From a virus: a DNA stretch of 49,111 nt. Below, piece after piece: positions 2,770 through 38,221 of the stretch (the first letter of the stretch is position 1; every line of letters starts with the position of its first letter). The notes beneath the pieces were generated by a model. That model was not told the origin of the DNA and made no database searches. It was given only the letters and a program-made list of their open reading frames with translations. The stretch lies in UHGV virus genome UHGV-0204897; one strand, 5' to 3'. The translations under genes were made by a program, and so were the position numbers.

Positions 2770-2793
2770 AAGCCCACTCAGGTGGGCTTTTTG
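2770..2793 (+). terminator. Rho-independent terminator
   Basis: Hairpin 'aagcccac tcag gtgggctt' followed by TTTTT. Confidence 0.7.
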
Positions 2794-2918
2794 CATTTAG
2801 TGCTATCAACACATCTTCATATCTATTCATATTACCTGAGGGGTAATTTCTTCAGTTGTGACCCTATCTTTACGCACCAACCAGCGTTTTAATCACGCCA
2901 GTAGGTGCTCTTTAACAA

Positions 2919-3218
2919 TTATTTCTTCTTTTTGCCGCTGAGGTAATCGTTGGCTTCCATCATCAAAACCCTGGCAAGATTCAAAGCTGCTTTGAATTCA
3001 GGTGAGCTTTCATCCTTGTAGTTTTCACCAATTGATGGCTGATCTGGTAAAAGCGTTATCCCCTTACCATCGCTATCTAGCGCATCCTGAAGTATCTGAA
3101 CTATCTCAGAGTTCATAGACCTGCCATTAGTCTTGGCGCGTTCGGCTATGGCGTCGCGCATCCCGTCAGGGAGGCGGAGGTTAAATTTATCCTGCAACTG
3201 GCTTGGGTACTTCGTCAT
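2919..3218 (-). CDS. mnt: Mnt-like ribbon-helix-helix repressor (Arc/MetJ family)
   Basis: N-terminus MTKYPSQLQDKFNLRLPDGMRDAIAERAKTNGRSMNSEIVQILQDAL is almost identical to the P22 Mnt RHH segment (...NGRSMNSELLQIVQDAL). It is divergent from an arc/ant-like pair. Confidence 0.7.
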   Translation of the reverse strand: MTKYPSQLQDKFNLRLPDGMRDAIAERAKTNGRSMNSEIVQILQDALDSDGKGITLLPDQPSIGENYKDESSPEFKAALNLARVLMMEANDYLSGKKKK

Positions 3219-3326
3219 GGCGCATCTCATGATACAAATTTTTATCATAATAGGATTAACTTGACACCATGAGCAATGGTGTTAAATTAATACCACTAGT
3301 GTCAAATTAATCCCAAAGGAGGGGCG
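3219..3326. promoter_or_regulatory. Divergent promoter/operator region of the immI-like module
   Basis: Inverted repeat TGACACCAT-N5-ATGGTGTTA (3262-3284) and palindrome CACTAGTG (3294-3301). Rightward -35 TTGACA (3261-3266) with -10 TAAATT (3283-3288) at 16-bp spacing, so the repeat overlaps the promoter. Confidence 0.45.
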
Positions 3327-3494
3327 ATGCAAAGCAATACGAAGAATGAAGCGAAACTCACTTTACGCTATCCGCAGGAAGTGAAAGATGCATTCAAGAA
3401 GATCGCAAGGGAAGAAGGGCTTTCTGAGAATTCCGCACTGGTACAGGCTTTGGTCTGGGCTTTGAAGTTTCGGGAAGGAATGAATGCACGCTAA
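3327..3494 (+). CDS. arc: Arc-like ribbon-helix-helix repressor (55 aa)
   Basis: RBS 'aaggagggg', then MQSNTKNEAKLTLRYPQEVKDAFKKIAREEGLSENSALVQAL, which resembles P22 Arc (PQFNLRWPREVLDLVRKVAEENGRSVNSEIYQRV). It overlaps the downstream antirepressor start. Too short to appear in the ORF track. Confidence 0.6.
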   Translation: MQSNTKNEAKLTLRYPQEVKDAFKKIAREEGLSENSALVQALVWALKFREGMNAR

Positions 3495-4197
3495 AAACGA
3501 CGAAGCCCAGAAGTGCGCTAACACTCTGGGCCTCTTATCGAACAAATCCGGCAAGGAATCTATCGACATGAACAGTGTACATAACAACGAATTAACTTTC
3601 CAGCAGACAGAGTTTCACCCGGTATCACATGCGGGTGAAACATGGCTCACTTCATCTGAATTGGCAGCAGCCCTGGGTTACAAGAAATCAGATGCCGTTA
3701 CCCAGATATTCAGTCGGTATCACGATGAATTTACTGAACATATGTCAACGACCCTCAAAATGAGTGTCGTTAGAAAGACTGGTGCTGTTGATATTCCGGT
3801 TCGTGTTTTTTCGCTTCGCGGATCTCACTTAATTGCGATGTTCGCTACCACCCCGAAGGCCAAAGAGTTCCGCCGCTGGGTGCTGGATGTCCTCGACCGC
3901 GAGGTGGCGCAATCTCCAATCGCGAAGCAGTTCACCGACGATGAATTATGCACCCTGGCATATCTTTGGCGTTCGGCTGCGGTGATGTACGAGGCGTGCC
4001 GAGAAGTACATCCTCTACTGTTGGTTGCCGAGCATCGACTGGTTCCTCGGTTTAGCTCTATTGGCACAAATTACAACAGGGGGATCAATAAGGCTCGCGC
4101 CATTCTTAAGCGCGAAACAGATCACATCAAAGAACAACCATGGGGAGATAGTGACTGGAAAAACGTCTTCTCATACGGGAAAGGAATTTTGCAGTGA
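3484..4197 (+). CDS. ant: Phage antirepressor (Ant/Rha/Bro-N-like N-terminal domain)
   Basis: Follows arc in a P22 immI-like arrangement. Motifs ETWLTSSELAAALGYKKSDAVTQIFSRYHDEF and RGSHLIAMFATTPKAKEFRRWVLDVL are typical of antirepressor N-domains. An alternative start is M29 at 3568. Confidence 0.6.
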   Translation: MHAKNDEAQKCANTLGLLSNKSGKESIDMNSVHNNELTFQQTEFHPVSHAGETWLTSSELAAALGYKKSDAVTQIFSRYHDEFTEHMSTTLKMSVVRKTGAVDIPVRVFSLRGSHLIAMFATTPKAKEFRRWVLDVLDREVAQSPIAKQFTDDELCTLAYLWRSAAVMYEACREVHPLLLVAEHRLVPRFSSIGTNYNRGINKARAILKRETDHIKEQPWGDSDWKNVFSYGKGILQ

Positions 4198-5015
4198 TGC
4201 AAATAGAAAAGCCGACAGTTCGCACCTGCCGGCTTCCATTGAAACTTGTCAAAAGGATCCAACCAATGACAAAAGTAAGTTTACCAGGTAACGGGCATCT
4301 CGTCGAGAAAACCATTGATAGTCAGTATCTGCTGGAGATGGTCAATGACGCCCGTAAGCAGTGCGGTGAGAAGATGGTGCGCAACAATGACTTTGTTGAG
4401 CGCATCAAAGACGAGTTGGAAGGGGAGTTTTACGAAACTTTCGTAAAACCTGCCGGAAAGTCTGGCGGTCGTCCTGTCGAGGTCATCGGCATGTCCATCA
4501 AGCAGGCTCTCCGCGTGGCCGCCCGCGAATCGAAAGCTGTTCGTCGCTCTTTGGTCGATAAGCTGGAAGATATGCAGGCGCTCCCGGTAATGCCGAAAAG
4601 TAATACCGGTATCACCGAATACCGCCTGGCAAAAGCGGATCAGTTGAAAGCCCAGGCACTGGAGAAAAATATCGCCAGCGCCCGTGAGATTATGTCTCTT
4701 CTTCCTCGCCTGGATCCGATGGCTCACCAGACGCTGGCGGCATCACTGATTAACCCTCTGATTGGTTACGACGCAATCCCGCTGCCAGTGATTGAGGAGC
4801 ATTACCACACCGCCGGGGAAGTTGGTGAAATGCTTGGTGTATCAGCTCAGAAGATTGGGCGCGTAGCAAACGCAAACAACCTTAAAACTGAGCGGAATGG
4901 TAAGTTCTTCCTGGACAAATCCGCACACTCCAATAAGCAGGTTGAAGCGTTCCGCTACAACGCCGAAGGCGTGAAAACTCTTCGTCATCTGATCCGTGGA
5001 GCTGACGTGGCGTAG
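4197..5015 (+). CDS. Second antirepressor-like or Rha-family regulatory protein
   Basis: Start overlaps the stop of the upstream gene (TGATG), and an alternative start MTKVSL at 4263 has RBS 'aaaagga'. The C-terminal region resembles antirepressor C-domains. Assignment is tentative. Confidence 0.4.
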   Translation: MQIEKPTVRTCRLPLKLVKRIQPMTKVSLPGNGHLVEKTIDSQYLLEMVNDARKQCGEKMVRNNDFVERIKDELEGEFYETFVKPAGKSGGRPVEVIGMSIKQALRVAARESKAVRRSLVDKLEDMQALPVMPKSNTGITEYRLAKADQLKAQALEKNIASAREIMSLLPRLDPMAHQTLAASLINPLIGYDAIPLPVIEEHYHTAGEVGEMLGVSAQKIGRVANANNLKTERNGKFFLDKSAHSNKQVEAFRYNAEGVKTLRHLIRGADVA

Positions 5016-5043
5016 GTATTTCGATTTCCGCAACACCTTAATT

Positions 5044-5072
5044 CAAACCCGCTTAACTGCGGGTTTTCCTGT
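5044..5072 (+). terminator. Terminator-like hairpin
   Basis: Hairpin 'aacccgc ttaact gcgggtt' followed by 'ttcctgttg'. Confidence 0.45.
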
Positions 5073-5125: not shown

Positions 5126-5623
5126 ATGAAGAAGGCGCTTTTGTGGGCTTTAGTCATTGGAACATCGTTTTCTGCAAATGCTGGCGTAGAGAAATTCGGG
5201 TCGTGGATTACCAAGTCAGAGACAAATAAGATGACTGATCAGACTGACTTCGTGGCTATTAATACATCACCGGATATCTACAACAAAGCGGGTTCAAGTC
5301 GTGAGACAAGTCTCGTACTGCGTTGCAGTGACAATAAGACGGAAGTCTATTTATCGTTCAGCGACTATATGGGATCCGATAGCCCAAGAGTAACTATTCG
5401 ACTCGATGGTGGAAAACCAGTTAAGAAGGCCTGGGGTGGTGGGGAGGGCGGTGATGCGGCATTTGCTCCGCAGCCAATACAATTTATAAAGGAATTGGCT
5501 AAACATAAAAAAGTAATATTTGGTTTTGAACCTTACGGAACCACGATGCAAGTAGTTGAATTTGACCTGTCAGAAACAGATAAAGTTATGGAAAATTTAT
5601 CACAGGCTTGTAAGTGGAAATAA
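5126..5623 (+). CDS. Secreted or periplasmic moron protein of unknown function
   Basis: Signal peptide MKKALLWALVIGTSFSANA. AT-rich relative to its neighbours. Has its own RBS and a strong terminator. Carries two Cys residues (C67 and a C-terminal QACKWK). Confidence 0.6.
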   Translation: MKKALLWALVIGTSFSANAGVEKFGSWITKSETNKMTDQTDFVAINTSPDIYNKAGSSRETSLVLRCSDNKTEVYLSFSDYMGSDSPRVTIRLDGGKPVKKAWGGGEGGDAAFAPQPIQFIKELAKHKKVIFGFEPYGTTMQVVEFDLSETDKVMENLSQACKWK

Positions 5624-5641
5624 AAACACTGCCTTAATACA

Positions 5642-5668
5642 AACCCAGCGCTCGCTGGGTTTTTTTTG
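5642..5668 (+). terminator. Rho-independent terminator
   Basis: Hairpin 'aacccagcg ctc gctgggtt' followed by T8. Confidence 0.75.
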
Positions 5669-5683
5669 CCTGGAGAAAGTGAA

Positions 5684-7864
5684 ATGACCCAGAACGTCGG
5701 TGATATTGAATATGTGATCAAAGCCGATACGGCACAGTTGCTGCGTGCTGATAAGCAGGTTGCGACTGTAACTGATAACATGGATGCAGGGTTTAAGAAG
5801 GCCGACAACTCCGCCTCCAAGATGTCCATGGCAATAAGTAAGGTTTCCGCAGCTATTTCTGTTGCTCTGATTGTTGAATGGGGAAGGGCTTTTCTGTCTG
5901 CCGCCGACTCCATGAATCAACTCAACGCGAGGATTGAGAGGCTCACAGGGAGTGCGGATTCTGCATCGAATACAATGCAGGGGTTAAAGCGAATAAGTTC
6001 GGCTACCGGAGGTTCAATTCAGGATACCGCCAGGCTGTGGGAGACTCTCAGCACGGCGTTGCGCGATACCGGTGCATCTAACGGGCAGATCATCCAGCTA
6101 ACCGAAACACTTCAAAAAATAGGAAGTATCGGCGGGTCATCTTCCGATGAAATGGCGAATGCTCTTCGTCAGTTCGGTCAGTCAATTTCATCCGGCACTG
6201 TCCGGGCGGAGGAGTTCAACTCCATCCTTGAGCAAATGCCGGAACTGGCGCGCCAGATTGCCGACGGGATGGGTGTAAGCATCGGAGAGCTTCGTCAGCT
6301 GATGCTGGACGGGAAACTGACAGCAGAAGATGCTCTCAACGCCATTCAGAAGCAAACCAGTTCAGTGAATGCAGAGTTCGATAAACTTCCGCGTACGCTT
6401 TCTCAGGCCAATACCGCGCTGACAAACTCATTTCTTACTATGGTTGATGATATCAACCAGGCCACAGAGGCCAGTAACGGCATGGTTCTGGTTATAGATT
6501 CTCTTGCGGTTGCCATTGGCAGGCTTACCGGGCAGGCCGCCACAGCAAGTCAGCAAATAGCAGACCTCCGCTCTGAGGCTGAGATGTACGCCAGGCGAGC
6601 GCGGACATGGAGTTGGCTTGGTTTTGGTGACTGGCAGAAAGAGAACGAGGATAAATCAGCTCAACTGACAGCTGAAGCTTGGGAGAAGTCATCCAGGGCG
6701 GGGTGGGATGCAGCCCAAAAAGTAGCAAAAAATAGCAAGCCAATAACAATAAAAGCCACCATAGGGTCAGCAGAAAAAACAGGCATCAATAAGGCTAAAG
6801 CAAAGGGAAGCGCCGACGCCGCGGCCGAAGCAATATCAAAGCAACAGGCTGCACTATCCCGCCTCAACACCGGTTATGCCGAGGGTTCTTTGGAGCTGGC
6901 TCAATACGACGCCGTTGTTGCGCTAGGCAATAAAGCAACGGACGAGCAGATCGCCAAGGCAAGGTCTCAGGCCAAGGCGATATGGGAGGTGACCAACGCT
7001 ATTAAGAACCGCGCTCAGGCAGAGCAGGCTAAGCGCTTTACCGATCAGGAGATTGCCGCCAACAAAACCACCCCTGACGCTGTTACCGGCGCTGTGCAAG
7101 ACCCGACGGCTCAAATAGCGCTCCAGGAGCAGCAGAAGCTGGCGGCACTGCAACAGTACCAGCAAATGGGTGTTTTGAGCGTCCAGCAATACGAAGATGC
7201 CAAGACGGCCATTCAGGAGCAGGCAGCAAACGCCAGGAGGAAAATTGCTGTAGATGAGGCCAATGCACAAACTGAGGCGATAGGTTCCATTCTCGGCTCG
7301 GCATCGCAGGGCTTTGACAGCCTGGCGTCAATTATCGAAAACACGTCTGGAAAGAGCAGTGGTGCATATGTTGCCATGTTCGCTGCTGCAAAAGCATTCG
7401 CGATAGCGCAATCAACCCTGAGCCTTAACACGGCGATTATGCAGGCCATGGCGGATCCGACTGCTCTTACGCCAGCACAAAAAATGGCGAACTACGCAGC
7501 CATCGCCTCGGCCGGTGCTTCCCTGCTTTCGAATATTGCAAGTGTCACCATGAGTGGCGGTCGTCGCTACGGCGGTACGGTTTCTGCTGGTAACGCCTAT
7601 CGTGTCAACGAGGATGGCCGTTCTGAAATCTTCCAGACCGCCGGGGGTCAGCAGGCATTCATCCCGAACCAGTCAGGAAAGATTATTCCTGCTGATAAGG
7701 TTGGAGGAGGCGGTGGGGTGGTGCAGCACATCACTTTCGAAATCAACACCACTGGCGGCATAGACGATGCGACCATGGCTAAGATGGCGCAGATGATGAA
7801 GCAGGTTAGCCTCAGCACCATTCGTGATCAGCAGCGCCCTAACGGGTTACTACGGAGGTCATAG
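5684..7864 (+). CDS. H: Tail tape measure protein (lambda gpH-like)
   Basis: About 727 aa and Ala/Gln-rich with coiled-coil character. Sits directly upstream of the gpM, gpL, gpK, gpI and gpJ homologues. RBS 'ggagaaag'. Confidence 0.85.
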   Translation: MTQNVGDIEYVIKADTAQLLRADKQVATVTDNMDAGFKKADNSASKMSMAISKVSAAISVALIVEWGRAFLSAADSMNQLNARIERLTGSADSASNTMQGLKRISSATGGSIQDTARLWETLSTALRDTGASNGQIIQLTETLQKIGSIGGSSSDEMANALRQFGQSISSGTVRAEEFNSILEQMPELARQIADGMGVSIGELRQLMLDGKLTAEDALNAIQKQTSSVNAEFDKLPRTLSQANTALTNSFLTMVDDINQATEASNGMVLVIDSLAVAIGRLTGQAATASQQIADLRSEAEMYARRARTWSWLGFGDWQKENEDKSAQLTAEAWEKSSRAGWDAAQKVAKNSKPITIKATIGSAEKTGINKAKAKGSADAAAEAISKQQAALSRLNTGYAEGSLELAQYDAVVALGNKATDEQIAKARSQAKAIWEVTNAIKNRAQAEQAKRFTDQEIAANKTTPDAVTGAVQDPTAQIALQEQQKLAALQQYQQMGVLSVQQYEDAKTAIQEQAANARRKIAVDEANAQTEAIGSILGSASQGFDSLASIIENTSGKSSGAYVAMFAAAKAFAIAQSTLSLNTAIMQAMADPTALTPAQKMANYAAIASAGASLLSNIASVTMSGGRRYGGTVSAGNAYRVNEDGRSEIFQTAGGQQAFIPNQSGKIIPADKVGGGGGVVQHITFEINTTGGIDDATMAKMAQMMKQVSLSTIRDQQRPNGLLRRS

Positions 7865-8232: not shown

Positions 8233-8394
8233 ATGACTTTAGCTGAACGTGTAAAGAGAATTGAGAGCGAATTAAAAGATATTAAATCGCAACTCAATTC
8301 TGGTACCGATTCTAGGAAAACAGCAAAAGCAATGCCCTTATCCAGTCTTGCAAAAGAGGGAGGTATCCCTGGGGGGTTAGTTAAAAAATGTTAA
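8233..8394 (+). CDS. Small hypothetical protein (53 aa), AT-rich
   Basis: RBS 'gggaga'. It is convergent with the aspartic protease gene and overlaps it by 18 nt. Confidence 0.3.
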   Translation: MTLAERVKRIESELKDIKSQLNSGTDSRKTAKAMPLSSLAKEGGIPGGLVKKC

Positions 8395-8841
8395 CTCAAA
8401 TACTTGATTGGAAAAATCCATCGTAAGGGCGCCCATTTTAATTAGTTGCATTCCGAAAACGACTTGGAATTTTCTCCCGTTACTTACCAATGGCACTGAA
8501 GTCAATTCTGTTGAAAAAACTCTTTCGTCCTCAGTGAACGATATTACCGCATGCCGAACTGTAGTTTCTATTGTTGAGGTGGCTCCGCTCACAGTTGTTT
8601 TTTCCGCGATTGGGAGTTTTAAATCGTCAGCAAAGTCTGAATCCACATAGCAAAGATCTGCTCCGGTATCTATAAGTGCGTAGGCACCAGCCTTCAATCC
8701 ATTTGGTTTATAAACGTTTATATCTTTTGAGCTACTTGGCCATACTGTCAATGGAACTACGGGAATTGCATGCTCCGTGGGGGTATCTGATACCGATCCA
8801 TCAATAGGGGAAATAAACTTGATTTTTACTTTGGTGATCAT
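8377..8841 (-). CDS. Retropepsin-like (clan AA) aspartic protease
   Basis: Active-site motif ALIDTGADLCYV (hydrophobic-hydrophobic-D-T-G-A-D) plus a downstream GMQLIKMGALTMDF motif. 154 aa. AT-rich moron on the opposite strand between gpM and gpL. RBS 'ggaaaaagg'. Confidence 0.65.
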   Translation of the reverse strand: MITKVKIKFISPIDGSVSDTPTEHAIPVVPLTVWPSSSKDINVYKPNGLKAGAYALIDTGADLCYVDSDFADDLKLPIAEKTTVSGATSTIETTVRHAVISFTEDERVFSTELTSVPLVSNGRKFQVVFGMQLIKMGALTMDFSNQVFELTFFN

Positions 8842-14706: not shown

Positions 14707-15021
14707 ATGGCGGAATATGGTGTTCAGACATGGGACGCCTCAGGCAATGTTAATAATTATGGCGTTAAGCCTGTCAGCGTTTGTGGCTATCTCCAGCTGG
14801 CCCAGAACCAGAAAACAGGCTCTTACACCGTAGCGCTTCCACCGGGTTGCAGGCTGACCTATTTTCAGAGCATGAACGGCGATCAGTTTGGTACGAGTCG
14901 GAGGAAGATCACCATTTCGGGGGGAACAGCAACAGTGTCAGCAGCAGGTGATACCGACTACTCAGCAGGGACTGAGCCTGCGGCAGCGGCTTATCTCATT
15001 TTCCAGATCGAGAGGGCATAA
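14707..15021 (+). CDS. Hypothetical protein, MAEYGV repeat family (104 aa)
   Basis: RBS 'aggagg'. Begins MAEYGVQTWDASGN, and it is a paralogue of the next gene. Confidence 0.5.
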   Translation: MAEYGVQTWDASGNVNNYGVKPVSVCGYLQLAQNQKTGSYTVALPPGCRLTYFQSMNGDQFGTSRRKITISGGTATVSAAGDTDYSAGTEPAAAAYLIFQIERA

Positions 15022-15693
15022 ATGGCGGAGTATGGCGTTTTACTGACGACCACGAGCGGGGAAGTATGGGTGACCGCGAACAGCTCGCCAATCGCTCTTC
15101 AGGCGCGAAAGACAGCGGCACTTCAGGGAACATCGGGGTTCAATACCAAAGTGACGCACACATTCCCCGCAGGTCAGCCCGTTGTCGCGTTCGTTCATTG
15201 CACGGTTGAGGTTGAAATCACCCAGACGATAAGCGGGAACACCATCACGATTGATTTTCTCAGACCGAATGCAACCGGCACAGCGTACGTTTATTTTTTC
15301 TCTATTTTCCCGCAGACAAAGCCAGACTACGGGCTGGCCGTGTGGGATGCTTCAGGGACGCTGATTTTAACAAACGAAACGCGCACGCTGAGCGATGTTG
15401 TCACCCTCGGTACCGCCGGGGTGGATGCCAGCTCAGGATACAACATCAATACAACTCTGGCGGGGAAGTGGGCCTGTATGCCTGCCATGCTGGGGCTAAT
15501 TACCGGGGTTGTATCCGCCGGCGGTCAGCCGCAGCCCTACTCGGCCATATACAAGAGCATGGCAAAGCTTGAGGGAAGCAATACGCGGATATTCGCCAGG
15601 CCGCAGACAACCCCCGGCGGCAACCTTCAGAACGTTACGTATTCGAATCTGAGGAACGTGATTATGGCCATTAACTGCGCCAATTATGATTGA
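15022..15693 (+). CDS. Hypothetical protein, two tandem MAEYGV-type domains (223 aa)
   Basis: RBS 'gagaggg'. N-terminus MAEYGVLLTTTSGEVWV, and the internal stretch DYGLAVWDASGTLILTNE repeats the motif of the upstream paralogue. Confidence 0.5.
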   Translation: MAEYGVLLTTTSGEVWVTANSSPIALQARKTAALQGTSGFNTKVTHTFPAGQPVVAFVHCTVEVEITQTISGNTITIDFLRPNATGTAYVYFFSIFPQTKPDYGLAVWDASGTLILTNETRTLSDVVTLGTAGVDASSGYNINTTLAGKWACMPAMLGLITGVVSAGGQPQPYSAIYKSMAKLEGSNTRIFARPQTTPGGNLQNVTYSNLRNVIMAINCANYD

Positions 15694-17351: not shown

Positions 17352-17618
17352 TTAAAGCCCAACCTGGCGAACAGTAGGAGACTCAGAGGTCAGCCACATG
17401 TCAGAATCTTCAAACATTTCCTCCAGCATTCGGTTCAGTTTTTCACGATCACTTTTGCTGGCGTTGCTGTTTAAGGCGTTCGCCTGCATCGGCTTAACCT
17501 TCACTTCTGCGTCAGGGAAAATCTGGTGCACCCGTTTCGTCAGCTCTGCCAGAATGATCTCTCTTGCCCCTGGTAGCCCTTCAACATTTCGCTTGTCATA
17601 AACCAGTTCAACAAACAT
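17352..17618 (-). CDS. dinI: DinI-like DNA damage-inducible protein
   Basis: Colinear with E. coli DinI (MRIEVTIAK...ELSRRIQYAFPD... against MFVELVYDK...ELTKRVHQIFPD...DMWLTSE). Confidence 0.8.
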   Translation of the reverse strand: MFVELVYDKRNVEGLPGAREIILAELTKRVHQIFPDAEVKVKPMQANALNSNASKSDREKLNRMLEEMFEDSDMWLTSESPTVRQVGL

Positions 17619-17672
17619 ACCGATCCCCTCTTAAGTGAAAATTGCCTGTGCTTGATCTGTTTTCATAAAAAT

Positions 17673-17692
17673 ACTACTGTATATGCATACAG
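17673..17692. promoter_or_regulatory. LexA (SOS) box
   Basis: TACTGTATATGCATACAGTT is a perfect CTGT-N8-ACAG. It lies about 55 bp upstream of the dinI-like start and 26 bp upstream of the divergent + strand gene. Confidence 0.75.
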
Positions 17693-17717
17693 TTAATGTG
17701 CGAATGAGGGTTCGTTC

Positions 17718-17957
17718 ATGCCTCGTCAACCGAATATTCGTGCTGCTTTTATTGCGGCCATAGAGCTTAACCCAAAGGGCTACCGCTACCTGAGAACAGA
17801 CCACTTCATACAAAAGTTGCGTGGTTTTAACTGGCACTTTACCCGTGACGATGCAAACAAGTGGATAGAGCGCAACCAACCTGGTTTCGCTGATAAAACG
17901 ACAGACGGTAGCGAAAACCGTTACTGGATCTTGCGTAACATGGGGAGGGTTCACTAA
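17718..17957 (+). CDS. Hypothetical protein (79 aa), first gene of the LexA-box operon
   Basis: RBS 'gaggg' followed by ATG. The stop overlaps the start of the next gene (TAATG). Confidence 0.5.
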   Translation: MPRQPNIRAAFIAAIELNPKGYRYLRTDHFIQKLRGFNWHFTRDDANKWIERNQPGFADKTTDGSENRYWILRNMGRVH

Positions 17958-18280
17958 TGGGATTTGCATCACCTGCGACTGATTACGTCGAGCGCCAGCT
18001 CACTCCCGAAATACTGTGTCACATGGGCGCTGATAGCAGGGTGCTTGAAACTGATTCAGGATTTGCAGTCATTGAGCCAGCAGTGAAAAAAACACCCGGC
18101 GATGTGTTACTTATCCTTTGCGACGGTCATACGCAGTTTGCTAAGTTGATGGGCAAGGCGCTTATTACAGATGATGGAGAGGCAATAGAAGGAAACGCAC
18201 TGGAAGAAGTAGAGGTACTGGGCCGCGTGACGTTCTTCATCAATCGTGCGAGGGATGACGATGACTGCCCGGTGATGTAG
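17957..18280 (+). CDS. UmuD'-like protein (HumD-like, lacking the N-terminal cleavable arm)
   Basis: MGFASPATDYVERQL... aligns with UmuD starting at the Cys24/Gly25 cleavage product (GFPSPAADYVEQ). A DSG Ser and an FAKL Lys are retained in S24-like positions. 107 aa, no adjacent umuC. Confidence 0.65.
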   Translation: MGFASPATDYVERQLTPEILCHMGADSRVLETDSGFAVIEPAVKKTPGDVLLILCDGHTQFAKLMGKALITDDGEAIEGNALEEVEVLGRVTFFINRARDDDDCPVM

Positions 18281-27802: not shown

Positions 27803-28666
27803 CTATTTGGCATCCACTATAAATAGCCTATTTATTTGCCCTTTTTTCACAGTGGCCTTTGCAGTTATTGTGAATATGGATGATATGTCGCCCTTCGTTG
27901 AGATATAGGCGCTAAGGGCATTGAGGTAGGGGTTGTTCTTTTTGCTTGCAGCAGGATCACTGATTTCAGAAGTTATTCTCTTCTTCGAATCATCTCCTTC
28001 AAGTATGATCTTTGCTGTCATATTCTGTGCGTCAAACTCCGTAAGGTAAGCTCGATACTCTCTTAATCCTACAATCTCATCATCTTCAAGCTTGTCTATC
28101 TGCTCTTTATCCGCCGCGTCCACCTTTAAAAGACACCCATCTTTGTTAGTGGAAATGCTGATTTGATCACATGTGTTTCCAATCGGAGAAACGGCCTGCC
28201 GAACTGCGGGGCGAAGTTCTACAGCCATCTTATCAATCACTGAGATTAACTTATCGATGGTTCCAGAGTCCTTGTTACCTAGCGCCTCTATGGCCTTTTC
28301 GAGAACCTGCTGTAGAGCTTTCATTTCATCTTTCTTGTTCGAATTTCTCGCAAATATATATTGAAGTATCGCACCCAGTATAGTTGCGGCGATCCCTGAG
28401 AACAACTGATTCTGAGTAACGAAATTTAGCGCAGCTTCTAAAGTGAAGCAATTTGCCCTTGCCTCTCTCGCATATACCTTAACGTCTTGATATGTGGATA
28501 TTTTGCTGTATTTCTGAGTGGCTGAAAATGATGCTGCTGTAGATAAAACTTTAGAGAATCCCTTTAGAGACTCCCCAAGGCAATTGAGATCAATTTCATG
28601 GTTTTCAGCGTCCTTACCGTCATATCTTAGTGATATCTTTATATCTTGTAATACCCCGTCATCCAT
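27803..28666 (-). CDS. Uncharacterised membrane-associated protein in the rex/immunity-accessory position. Candidate exclusion or abortive-infection protein.
   Basis: 287 aa immediately downstream of cI, as lambda rexAB is. Markedly AT-rich. One central hydrophobic helix ([19 protein letters not shown]) and a coiled-coil-like C-terminal half. No recognisable family. Confidence 0.6.
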
Positions 28667-28715: not shown

Positions 28716-29357
28716 CTAAACCAGCCGCAGCTTCGTCTCTACAGCTACACCAATGATACGGCAGTTACCATTAATAGGCACGAGTGGCCATTGCGGGTTG
28801 AGGCCCTTCAGATACTTCTGTGCACCATCGATCACCAGTTTCTTAAAGGTCGCCTCGTTCGAATCGGATAGCTTAGCTATAACCAGACTGCCATTTACCG
28901 CATCTCTACCGGTGTCGAAAAGTACATAGGTTCCTTCAGGTATGCTCAAGCCAGTAGGGGCTGTCATTGACTCGCCCTCAACGAGCAACCAGAACGCCTC
29001 CCCCTGAATGTGAGCATCTGATTCAAGCCAAAGGTCGATATCTTTAAGGGTGTACGGCTCAACAGCTTCGCACCATGCTCCTGCCTGCACCTTGCTTATA
29101 ACTGGGTATTTATCACCTGGCTTGTAAGGGCCTTTGTAGTCATCGCCAAAAAGCAGCTCGGCAGGCGCAACCCCCAGCGCCTTAGCTATTACAGTTGCAT
29201 CATCAACGCTAACGCTCCTGGTGCCTGATTCGTAATTCCCTATGCGTGACTGCGAGGCCCACCCGCAAAGCTCTGCGAGAGCCTTTTGTGACAGCCCTTT
29301 ATCTTCGCGAAGTCGCTTAATGCGGCCCGCTATATCTTCGATTCTATTCATTCTCAT
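28716..29357 (-). CDS. cI: CI-type repressor (N-terminal HTH plus C-terminal S24 LexA-like peptidase domain)
   Basis: HTH GLSQKALAELCGWASQSRIGNYESG. An Ala-Gly (VQAGAW) cleavage-site candidate. S24 Ser in VEGESMTA and Lys in ATFKKL. Confidence 0.9.
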   Translation of the reverse strand: MRMNRIEDIAGRIKRLREDKGLSQKALAELCGWASQSRIGNYESGTRSVSVDDATVIAKALGVAPAELLFGDDYKGPYKPGDKYPVISKVQAGAWCEAVEPYTLKDIDLWLESDAHIQGEAFWLLVEGESMTAPTGLSIPEGTYVLFDTGRDAVNGSLVIAKLSDSNEATFKKLVIDGAQKYLKGLNPQWPLVPINGNCRIIGVAVETKLRLV

Positions 29358-37678: not shown

Positions 37679-38221
37679 ATGCGGCAAAGGTTCATCTCAA
37701 AGAAGGCAAACGCCATGTTAAAAGATCCTTCCAAGGAAGAGATTGAAAAATACTTCTTTTGCGACCCAGATGTCGGGAGCATTGTCAGGATAGCCAACTC
37801 AAGTACAGCAAAGGCTGGGGAAAACCCAATTTATGTTAACAATTGTGGTTACCACATGGTCAGCGCGCTGGGTCAGTGTATTGGTCTCCACCGAATAGTT
37901 TGGATGGTAGCGAAAGGCTGTATTCCAGAAGGTATGGAAATCGACCATATCAATGGCGACAAGAGCGACAACAGAATTAGTAACCTGCGCCTTTGCACGC
38001 CGACACAGAACAGGCAAAACAAGACCAAATATAAAAACAACAAATCTGGCTTTAAAGGGGTTTACTACGAAACAGCTCAACGGGTTAAGAAACCATGGAG
38101 AGCAAGGATTGTTGTTAATAAAAAGGCGATCAGCTTGGGTAACTTTATGACCAAGCATGAGGCCCATCAGGCCTATCAAGATGCAGCAAAAAAATATTTT
38201 GGCGAATTCAACAGGCCCTAA
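37679..38221 (+). CDS. HNH endonuclease with a C-terminal AP2 domain
   Basis: HRIVW...IDHINGDKSDNRISNLRL is an HNH_3 motif. GFKGVYYETAQRVKKPWRARIVVNKKAISLGNF...EAHQAYQDAAKKYFGEF is an AP2 domain. Confidence 0.75.
   Translation: MRQRFISKKANAMLKDPSKEEIEKYFFCDPDVGSIVRIANSSTAKAGENPIYVNNCGYHMVSALGQCIGLHRIVWMVAKGCIPEGMEIDHINGDKSDNRISNLRLCTPTQNRQNKTKYKNNKSGFKGVYYETAQRVKKPWRARIVVNKKAISLGNFMTKHEAHQAYQDAAKKYFGEFNRP

Follow-up and report, generated by a model that had tools for sequence, protein, structure and literature searches.

An immI-type antirepressor cassette with a probable sar-like antisense RNA in the tail operon of a lambdoid temperate siphophage

The DNA analysed here is the viral genome UHGV-0204897, a stretch of 49,111 nucleotides that we refer to as the window. 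It also carries an integrase, CI/Cro, O/DnaB-type replication genes and Q, and judged by this gene content it is therefore a complete lambdoid temperate siphophage. In its tail gene cluster, the major tail protein (803–1537) is followed by a DUF6246 protein (1562–2227), i.e., a chaperone resembling gp17 of phage ES18, and by two small open reading frames (ORFs), while further on a VasI-like secreted protein (5126–5623) precedes the tape measure (5666–7864), all assigned from Pfam and PHROG. Between these two groups lie, in order, a leftward Mnt-like ribbon-helix-helix (RHH) gene, a control region, a rightward Arc-like RHH gene, a sar-like RNA, the antirepressor gene ant and a second ORF. An earlier note, made from the sequence alone, had described positions 2919–5015 as a module like the immI region of phage P22, with mnt, arc and ant, inside the tail cluster. 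The ORFs that it listed are all present where it placed them, and the module is borne out by the ORF families, by the matches to P22 Mnt and Arc, by the gene order and by the sar-like RNA that we add to it. The features are as follows.

2770–2789, plus strand: terminator-like hairpin, AAGCCCAC-TCAG-GTGGGCTT plus TTTGCATTT, from the terminator scan and folding; it closes the genes on the tail-chaperone side and forms the left cassette boundary.
2919–3218, minus strand: Mnt-like RHH repressor of 99 amino acids (Pfam Arc, PF03869, E=2e-20), the RHH domain being the first ~50 residues.
3247–3276, minus strand: candidate promoter P_mnt, TTGCTC (3276 to 3271), 18 nt, TATTAT (3252 to 3247), read by eye; its spacer holds box L.
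3255–3267 (L, inverted), 3279–3291 (M) and 3299–3311 (R): operator-like boxes GTGTYAANTTRAT, with centres about 23 and 20 bp apart.
3261–3288, plus strand: near-consensus sigma-70 promoter P_ant, TTGACA (3261–3266), 16 nt, TAAATT (3283–3288), with an extended -10 TG; from the promoter scan, 10/12 consensus.
3327–3494, plus strand: Arc-like RHH repressor of 55 amino acids (Pfam Arc), first gene of the rightward operon, ribosome-binding site (RBS) AAAGGAGG at 3315–3322.
3495–3567, minus strand: putative sar-like cis-antisense RNA of ~73 nt that fills the arc-ant spacer, its 5' stem-loop lies across from the ant RBS and is followed by a GC-rich terminator hairpin of 14 bp and by a U-run.
3568–4197, plus strand: Ant, 209 amino acids from a revised start, with Bro-N N-terminal and P22_AR_C C-terminal domains; RBS AAGGAA at 3553–3558.
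3574–3602, minus strand: candidate promoter P_sar, TGGAAA (3602 to 3597), 17 nt, TACACT (3579 to 3574), inferred, within the first ant codons.
4266–5015, plus strand: second ORF, 249 amino acids (phrog_1726), by its structure model a two-domain winged-helix protein of the Rha/KilA/KilAC 'antirepressor' class.
5045–5066, plus strand: stable hairpin AAACCCGC-TTAACT-GCGGGTTT and then UUCCUGUUG (fold z=-4.8), a probable right boundary or terminator, which is not among the results of the terminator scan.

The GC content of the cassette is 0.43–0.47, compared with 0.52–0.56 in the flanking tail genes. A moron is an independently regulated insert in a late morphogenetic operon, and this insert is bounded by hairpins, low in GC and placed in a slot that holds different cargo in ES18.

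The RHH domain of the leftward protein is, by sequence, homologous to P22 Mnt and Arc. The best phage structure match of the 99-residue protein is P22 Mnt (1mnt, E=3.5e-8), with Arc behind at 8e-5. A tblastn comparison with P22 Mnt gives 58% identity restricted to Mnt residues 8–43, and the 1mnt match covers residues 6–45. The 17-mer NGRSMNSEIVQILQDAL, described earlier as near-identical to the core of P22 Mnt, agrees with NGRSMNSELLQIVQDAL of P22 Mnt at 14 of 17 positions. The start at 3218 is supported by the N-termini of the homologs (MSKYPSQ / MSRFPSQ); a 109-residue version starting at 3248 was rejected, because in the homologs the protein begins at the position that matches 3218, and transcription from the candidate P_mnt would start downstream of 3248. 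The 55-residue gene at 3327–3494, which the earlier note had proposed as Arc-like, is confirmed by a Pfam Arc match above the cutoff (E=9.5e-7, 29 bits against 20.4). Against P22 Arc structures its product scores E=8e-5 to 3e-4, and against Mnt 0.71, i.e., of the two RHH products the longer matches Mnt best and the shorter Arc. The position of the Arc-like gene is identical to that of P22 arc.

In five related loci (L027, L038, L039, L040 and L044, upstream of the small RHH gene at about 5400–5900) the divergent Mnt-type gene is replaced by a repressor with helix-turn-helix (HTH) and S24-like parts, whose size is at least 200 amino acids as the script read up to 200 codons. These loci retain the small RHH gene, the sar-like RNA and ant, giving an apparently hybrid control region.

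The minus strand of the arc-ant spacer probably encodes a homolog of the P22 sar RNA, as suggested by a sub-threshold full-length Rfam match, an identical position and covariation. The match to Rfam RF00262 (sar) extends over its full length at 3498–3566(-) with 25.3 bits (E=0.0046, 301 nt searched), below the gathering score of 43; it is seen only in the E-value mode, and a scan at the gathering threshold would miss it. In the controls, P22 sar scores 97.8 bits and the homologous spacer of phage SPN3UB 48 bits, above threshold. In the P22 annotation arc ends at 15022, sar occupies 15021–15090(-) and ant starts at 15091; the counterpart in the window is an arc end at 3494, a sar match that ends at 3566 and an in-frame ATG, preceded by the AAGGAA RBS, at 3568. 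A DNA alignment shows the hairpin GAAGCCC...GGGCTTC to be conserved among P22, the window and SPN3UB, and the spacers of the window, P22 and SPN3UB fold alike, with z-scores of -4.4, -5.3 and -6.9.

Spacers were then taken from 43 related viral contigs found with Ant. The 24 distinct spacers have the same fold, i.e., a 5' stem-loop from nucleotide 1, a terminator stem of 12–15 bp and a U-run on the antisense side, and stem levels 8–14 show four to six different pair types among them. A covariance model built from eight spacer sequences gives exactly one antisense match in the window and in each cassette-bearing locus, always abutting the ant ATG; it recovers P22 sar, and a search of ES18 with it gives no match. 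Across 27 loci, 99.5% of the cells are paired compared with 88.1% in shuffles and compensatory changes are seen in 7 of 15 pairs, values that none of 500 shuffles reached and that fall to 27–59% paired in slid registers, all counted on an alignment that was fitted to the structure of the model. RNAalifold on a plain MAFFT alignment of the spacers gave 7 outer pairs only, because indels misaligned the inner stem, and per-sequence folding and the covariance-model alignment were used instead. The annotated P_sar of P22 (GTGTTA-17-TATACT) is at the position that matches our candidate P_sar. Nucleotides 7–12 of ant read A[G/T]T[G/A/T]TA in 31 of 31 distinct loci, i.e., TAnAnT on the antisense strand, which is consistent with a conserved P_sar -10.

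The ORF at 3484–4197 carries Bro-N and P22_AR_C domains (P22_AR_C E=8.7e-13) and matches phrog_245, 'anti-repressor Ant' (E=1.8e-52). Among deposited Ant proteins, the closest shares 62% identity with it. Sequence searches with Ant against PDB, NCBIfam and, at permissive settings, Pfam returned nothing useful. In the DNA alignment the ant start of P22, ATGAATAGTATA, falls on ATGAACAGTGTA at 3568 of the window and on ATGAATATTGTA of SPN3UB, and the first ant codons and the RBS region align with P22 as well. Relatives often have an open frame across the 28 codons by which a start at 3484 would extend ant, but the encoded residues differ radically wherever the hairpin covaries. An ATG at the equivalent of 3484 is missing from P22 and from several other loci. 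As the extension is not conserved as a protein and this ATG is missing, 3568 is the better-supported start, and ant most likely begins there and not at 3484. The two genes arc and ant then probably do not overlap, and the overlap reported earlier is probably an artefact of ORF calling.

In the control region, P_ant has the same position relative to arc as the annotated P_ant of P22, and by analogy it would drive arc and ant, and probably the ORF that follows ant. For the candidate P_mnt a counterpart exists in SPN3UB at the same place (TTGCGC-18-CATAAT). The earlier note had seen here a divergent operator/promoter with two palindromes. The repeats and the promoter are real: when the 108-nt region was simulated 2000 times with a first-order Markov model, its 15-nt inverted repeat (14/15 complementary) was never reached and its 20-nt direct repeat (16/20) was reached in five runs. 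They are better described as three copies of the 13-nt box GTGTYAANTTRAT. The window has exactly these three copies, also when one mismatch is permitted, and they overlap P_ant at its -35, its -10 and its start site. These boxes are conserved in the closest relatives, L012 and L030, which have the same Mnt and Arc types, and in SPN3UB. The core of the second palindrome, CACTAGTG, is not conserved in L012 and L030 and reads CAATGGTG there; this part of the description needs correction.

Two comparisons suggest, without proving it, that it is the Mnt-type protein to which the boxes belong. SPN3UB, whose Arc is different, shares with the window both the Mnt beta-strand (KFNLRFP) and the boxes. 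In L013, the Arc beta-strand is kept (AKTTLRYP vs AKLTLRYP), the Mnt beta-strand differs (KFVVRFP) and the boxes are replaced by three copies of ATGATGGCAT. In the wider family each RHH type has its own palindromes around a TTGACA promoter, with at least five operator types, one of which, CCCCACGGTGGGG, resembles O_mnt of P22.

The second ORF (4194–5015, with its start at 4266 set by database gene calls and by the N-termini of homologs) matches phrog_1726, 'anti-repressor', at E=1.7e-77. It has no sequence match in Pfam, NCBIfam or PDB, and shows no sequence relationship to P22 Ant or to gp22 of SPN3UB, the gene after ant in that phage. There are about 1900 homologs, all from Enterobacteriaceae and almost all 'hypothetical', with two labelled 'KilAC domain protein', and they follow Ant in about half of the related loci. 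An AlphaFold model (predicted local distance difference test score, pLDDT, 73) has two winged-helix-like modules joined by long helices. Its best matches among predicted viral structures (BFVD) are named antirepressor, KilAC, KilA or Rha (E=2e-8 to 1e-4); against PDB only the C-terminal ~68 residues weakly resemble the DNA-binding domains of RacA, BldC and MerR (E about 0.1). The label 'antirepressor-like', given earlier to this ORF, thus stands for the predicted fold class and the annotation; it would be a fair description of class and not of function, the sequence being unrelated to that of P22 Ant.

The slot between chaperone and tape measure, which had been called unusual, is not unusual for the lineage. 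Between its DUF6246 gene and its tape measure, SPN3UB carries an Arc-like gene on the minus strand, an Arc-like gene on the plus strand, Ant and a further regulator, and the Klebsiella phage ST11-VIM1phi8.1 has the same cassette layout there. A related Ant is present in the 43 viral contigs, at least 20 of which have DUF6246 upstream and the tape measure downstream, including lineages whose DUF6246 and tape measure are 25–40% identical to those of the window. The identical Mnt protein is found in 259 blocks of the collection, with the cassette in this slot and the same neighbouring genes in 8 of the 8 places shown, which stand for 20 of the 24 contigs read. Five of the related contigs belong to P22-like podophages, in which genes 16 and 9 flank the cassette. 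In P22 immI is located inside the late operon, and the 'ant moron' of P22-like podophages has been described as an independently regulated, fast-changing insert that late transcription must cross (PMC2629481). Near-identical DNA covering the cassette was found neither among complete E. coli genomes nor among deposited phages, and our literature search found no paper on immI or sar in ES18-like siphophages.

Two bacterial chromosomes among the related loci, CP056756 (L053) and CP055354 (L054), have a transposase of the IS3 insertion sequence (IS) family (HTH_Tnp_1 + rve) beside the cassette. L053 has lost the tape measure and neighbouring genes, in L054 the tape measure is truncated, and both prophage copies are defective.

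Compared with P22 immI, the cassette has in the same order a divergent Mnt-type RHH gene, a putative promoter/operator region with overlapping parts, an Arc-type RHH gene in first place, a probable antisense RNA of ~70 nt and an Ant with P22_AR_C. In both, the antisense RNA takes up the whole arc-ant spacer, as far as the base that precedes the ant ATG, the insert is bounded by terminators in a late operon and the phage also has a cleavable repressor of the C2 type. However, the surroundings are a siphophage tail cluster (chaperone/tape measure) here and gene 16/tailspike of a podophage in P22, the N-terminus of Ant is Bro-N and not P22_AR_N, and the C-terminal domain of Mnt is unrelated in sequence. 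Three GTGTYAANTTRAT boxes take the place of one O_mnt and one O_arc, an ORF of the Rha/KilAC class follows ant, and sieA, hkcC and orf59a are absent.

A similar layout is found in gp19–gp22 of SPN3UB (NC_019545) and in ST11-VIM1phi8.1 (MK448233), with the same slot and the order major tail, DUF6246, Arc-family gene (-), Arc-family gene (+), Bro-N Ant, regulator and tape measure; SPN3UB also shares the Mnt beta-strand and the box motif, and its sar is above the Rfam threshold. On the other hand, nucleotide similarity to these two phages is confined to the tail genes and mnt (82–87%), Ant is 53–62% identical, the gene after ant is unrelated, their slot contains extra accessory genes and the Arc of SPN3UB is of another type. 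ES18 has the same terminator-bounded insertion slot, between gp17 (DUF6246, the +1 frameshift chaperone) and the tape measure gp21, with flanking genes 83–91% identical. Its slot is instead filled by the unrelated gp18–gp20, 'possible morons' that include a DUF4041 protein, with no immI cassette and no sar match.

The CI repressor (28716–29357, minus strand) consists of HTH_3 and Peptidase_S24 domains and is 45% identical to P22 C2. It keeps the Ala-Gly site, the GxSM serine and the lysine, and the earlier claim of a LexA-like cleavable CI is thus well founded. By sequence it appears to be a self-cleaving repressor of the P22 C2 type and the presumed target of Ant. Two routes of induction, by C2 cleavage and by Ant, would then correspond to the situation in P22. 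In the LexA-controlled antirepressor systems of Gifsy-type phages and SPC32H, the antirepressor is likewise a second way to inactivate the prophage repressor. The window differs from these as no LexA box is found at its ant promoter, the control lies with Mnt, Arc and sar instead and CI itself is of the cleavable type. LexA control of ant was accordingly tried and rejected: no box (CTGT-N8-ACAG) is found within 2780–3330, and the only LexA-like match nearby, at 3560–3575, has one mismatch, such matches being at chance frequency (19 observed, 15.9 expected).

From these comparisons, we consider 2770–5066 to be an 'ant moron', i.e., an immI cassette homologous to that of P22 in the late (tail) operon of an ES18/SPN3UB-like lambdoid siphophage, with a probability of roughly 85%. 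The immI-type cassette of this phage is genuine and complete and is no new kind of system. It is already present in deposited phage genomes, where its annotation is incomplete.

We suggest that in a lysogen the Mnt-like repressor, made from its own promoter, would occupy the three GTGTYAANTTRAT boxes over P_ant and keep the antirepressor off. Upon infection or loss of Mnt, P_ant would fire and arc, ant and probably the next ORF would be transcribed, until accumulating Arc shuts the promoter region again and so limits Ant to a burst. The sar-like RNA of ~73 nt would run leftward from a promoter in the first ant codons to the hairpin just past the arc stop, and could pair with the ant RBS and block translation; it would also act on Q-antiterminated late transcripts that cross the cassette to the tape measure and distal tail genes. 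Ant would bind the C2-like CI, or repressors of co-resident prophages, non-covalently and inactivate them. The sequence itself shows that the parts are homologous and share order and spacing with P22, how the promoter and the boxes are arranged, and that the structure of the antisense RNA is conserved. The mechanism is carried over from P22 by homology, and we infer which protein acts at which site, the activity of P_mnt and P_sar and the target of Ant. This target is the main uncertainty, because the N-terminal domain is Bro-N and not of the P22 type.

Several observations weigh against such a close parallel with P22. The C-terminal 48 residues of the Mnt-like protein have no sequence match to the tetramerisation domain of P22 Mnt (residues ~50–82), and with Bro-N in place of P22_AR_N full-length orthology to P22 Ant fails and the target could differ. 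To the sub-threshold Rfam score and the fitted alignment described above it must be added that the candidate P_mnt and P_sar are weak consensus matches which the promoter scan did not report, P_mnt because its -35 is weak. An Arc operator was sought through loci sharing the Arc type (the window and L013), which have no common motif. As the reading frame stays open upstream of 3568 and includes an ATG at 3484, some translation may start there.

It is conceivable, and on balance unlikely, that the cassette is regulated like immI while Ant, the 249-residue ORF or both target the repressors of other prophages or of superinfecting phages, or regulate by binding DNA. The Bro-N domain would fit this, as would the two winged-helix DNA-binding-like domains predicted for the second ORF and the Ant homologs in the nin region of E. 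coli phages that are annotated 'Rha'; the joining of the same Ant type to many Mnt and Arc types and phage backbones also suggests a broadly acting effector. However, P22 Ant naturally targets C2, of which CI is a close structural homolog, the P22_AR_C domain is common to both Ant proteins, and the tight triple repression by Mnt, Arc and sar best suits a protein that induces its own prophage. P22 Ant also acts on heterologous repressors, and an effect on other repressors is compatible with an immI cassette as the best explanation. We regard it as very improbable that the arc-ant hairpin is only a terminator, attenuator or mRNA-stability element of the rightward transcript and that no functional antisense RNA is made. 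Such an element would agree with the sub-threshold score of the spacer and with the weak P_sar (8/12 consensus), which sits in coding sequence so that its conservation is confounded. However, only the antisense side has the U-run; the plus strand reads TAAAAA and is without a T-tract after the stem. Covariation extends to the 5' stem-loop, whose first nucleotide faces, in all loci, the base that precedes the ant ATG. The element also has a homolog in P22 sar, which is annotated as an antisense RNA, and the TAnAnT positions of the proposed -10 are invariant in all 31 loci despite the codons GTA, ATA and TTA.

That the whole cassette is a decaying, non-functional remnant gained by recombination seems to us extremely unlikely. 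Degradation and rapid flux are common among the published 'ant morons' of P22-like phages (PMC2629481), and an IS element lies in the neighbouring region in the two bacterial genomes L053 and L054. Yet all ORFs of the cassette are intact and have RBSs, the promoter is near consensus, the identical Mnt recurs across the collection, with the same neighbours in the eight places shown, and the structure of the spacer RNA is kept by compensatory changes. The RHH pair is almost certainly no toxin-antitoxin or partition system either, a reading rejected on gene content: it is prompted by the phrog_795 and phrog_2685 labels ('partition protein ATPase') and by weak FitA-like and HicB matches, but a toxin, ParA or a centromere partner is absent, the genes downstream are of the Ant class, and RefSeq gives even P22 mnt the label 'partition protein ATPase', which is therefore an annotation artefact.

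Starting from the immI reading, one may speculate further that the recurrence of the insert at two kinds of junction, gene 16/tailspike and chaperone/tape measure, is functional, the cassette being a valve on late transcription, and that the second ORF is a second antirepressor with another repressor as its target. We consider this doubtful. If true, the terminators, the repressor-bound promoter and the convergent sar would control the share of Q-antiterminated transcription that continues into the tape measure and distal tail genes, and would thereby tune the stoichiometry of the tail proteins; comparable speculation has been published for the levels of the P22 tailspike (PMC2629481). Together, ant and the co-transcribed 249-residue ORF would then form a dual-effector cassette for cross-prophage induction.

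Some other features of the window deserve mention. Next to the cassette, the VasI-like protein at 5126–5623 (PF11319 E=7e-9, phrog_1848 E=1.4e-65) belongs to a family associated with type VI secretion and has a signal-like N-terminal sequence. Together with a terminator of its own at 5641–5662, the gene appears to form a separate moron (5126–5662), which has the ant cassette on one side and the tape measure on the other and is kept at the same place in most prophages that carry the identical Mnt. Upstream, a +1-frame ORF at 2109–2474 overlaps the DUF6246 gene (together 1562–2474), and a 74-residue gene is called there in relatives. The overlap is consistent with the '+1 frameshift at 3' end' of ES18 gp17, i.e., with a G/GT-like pair of tail chaperones. 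Further along the tail genes, an ORF of 154 amino acids with retroviral-type aspartyl-protease domains (8377–8841, minus strand; PF13650 E=1e-5, PF13975; no PHROG match) lies as an insertion in a patch of low GC (0.41–0.43), with a gpM-like minor tail gene on one side and a gpL-like one on the other.

Directly downstream of CI, 27803–28666 (minus strand) encodes a DUF7946 + DUF7947 protein (E=3e-58 and 1e-16; phrog_5147), which occupies the position of rexAB in lambda and may be an exclusion or defence gene expressed from the prophage. A perfect LexA box, TACTGTATATGCATACAGTT, is found at 17675–17694, between a leftward DinI-like gene (17352–17618, PF06183 E=7.5e-23) and a rightward pair, consisting of a 79-residue ORF of unassigned function (17718–17957, phrog_3893) and a UmuD-like ORF (17957–18280, phrog_3469 E=3.4e-48). 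This unit (17352–18280) looks like an SOS-controlled accessory unit adjoining the integrase, and by analogy with dinI-gfoA of Gifsy the 79-residue ORF might be a small LexA-controlled antirepressor. Finally, a homing-endonuclease-like ORF with HNH_3 and AP2 domains (37679–38221) is located just downstream of the Q gene.

What this analysis adds, chiefly to annotation, is the recognition of a probable sar outside P22-like podophages, a corrected ant start and a definition of the operator boxes. In genomes of this kind gene callers probably mis-annotate the start of ant, making it 28 codons too long across sar and producing the apparent overlap with arc. The many natural combinations of RHH repressors and operators could serve studies of how the specificity of RHH-DNA recognition evolves. 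The complete immI circuit of P22, including sar, appears to be a mobile cassette common to P22-like podophages and to many ES18/SPN3UB-like siphophage prophages of Salmonella, Klebsiella, Enterobacter, Citrobacter and related genera.

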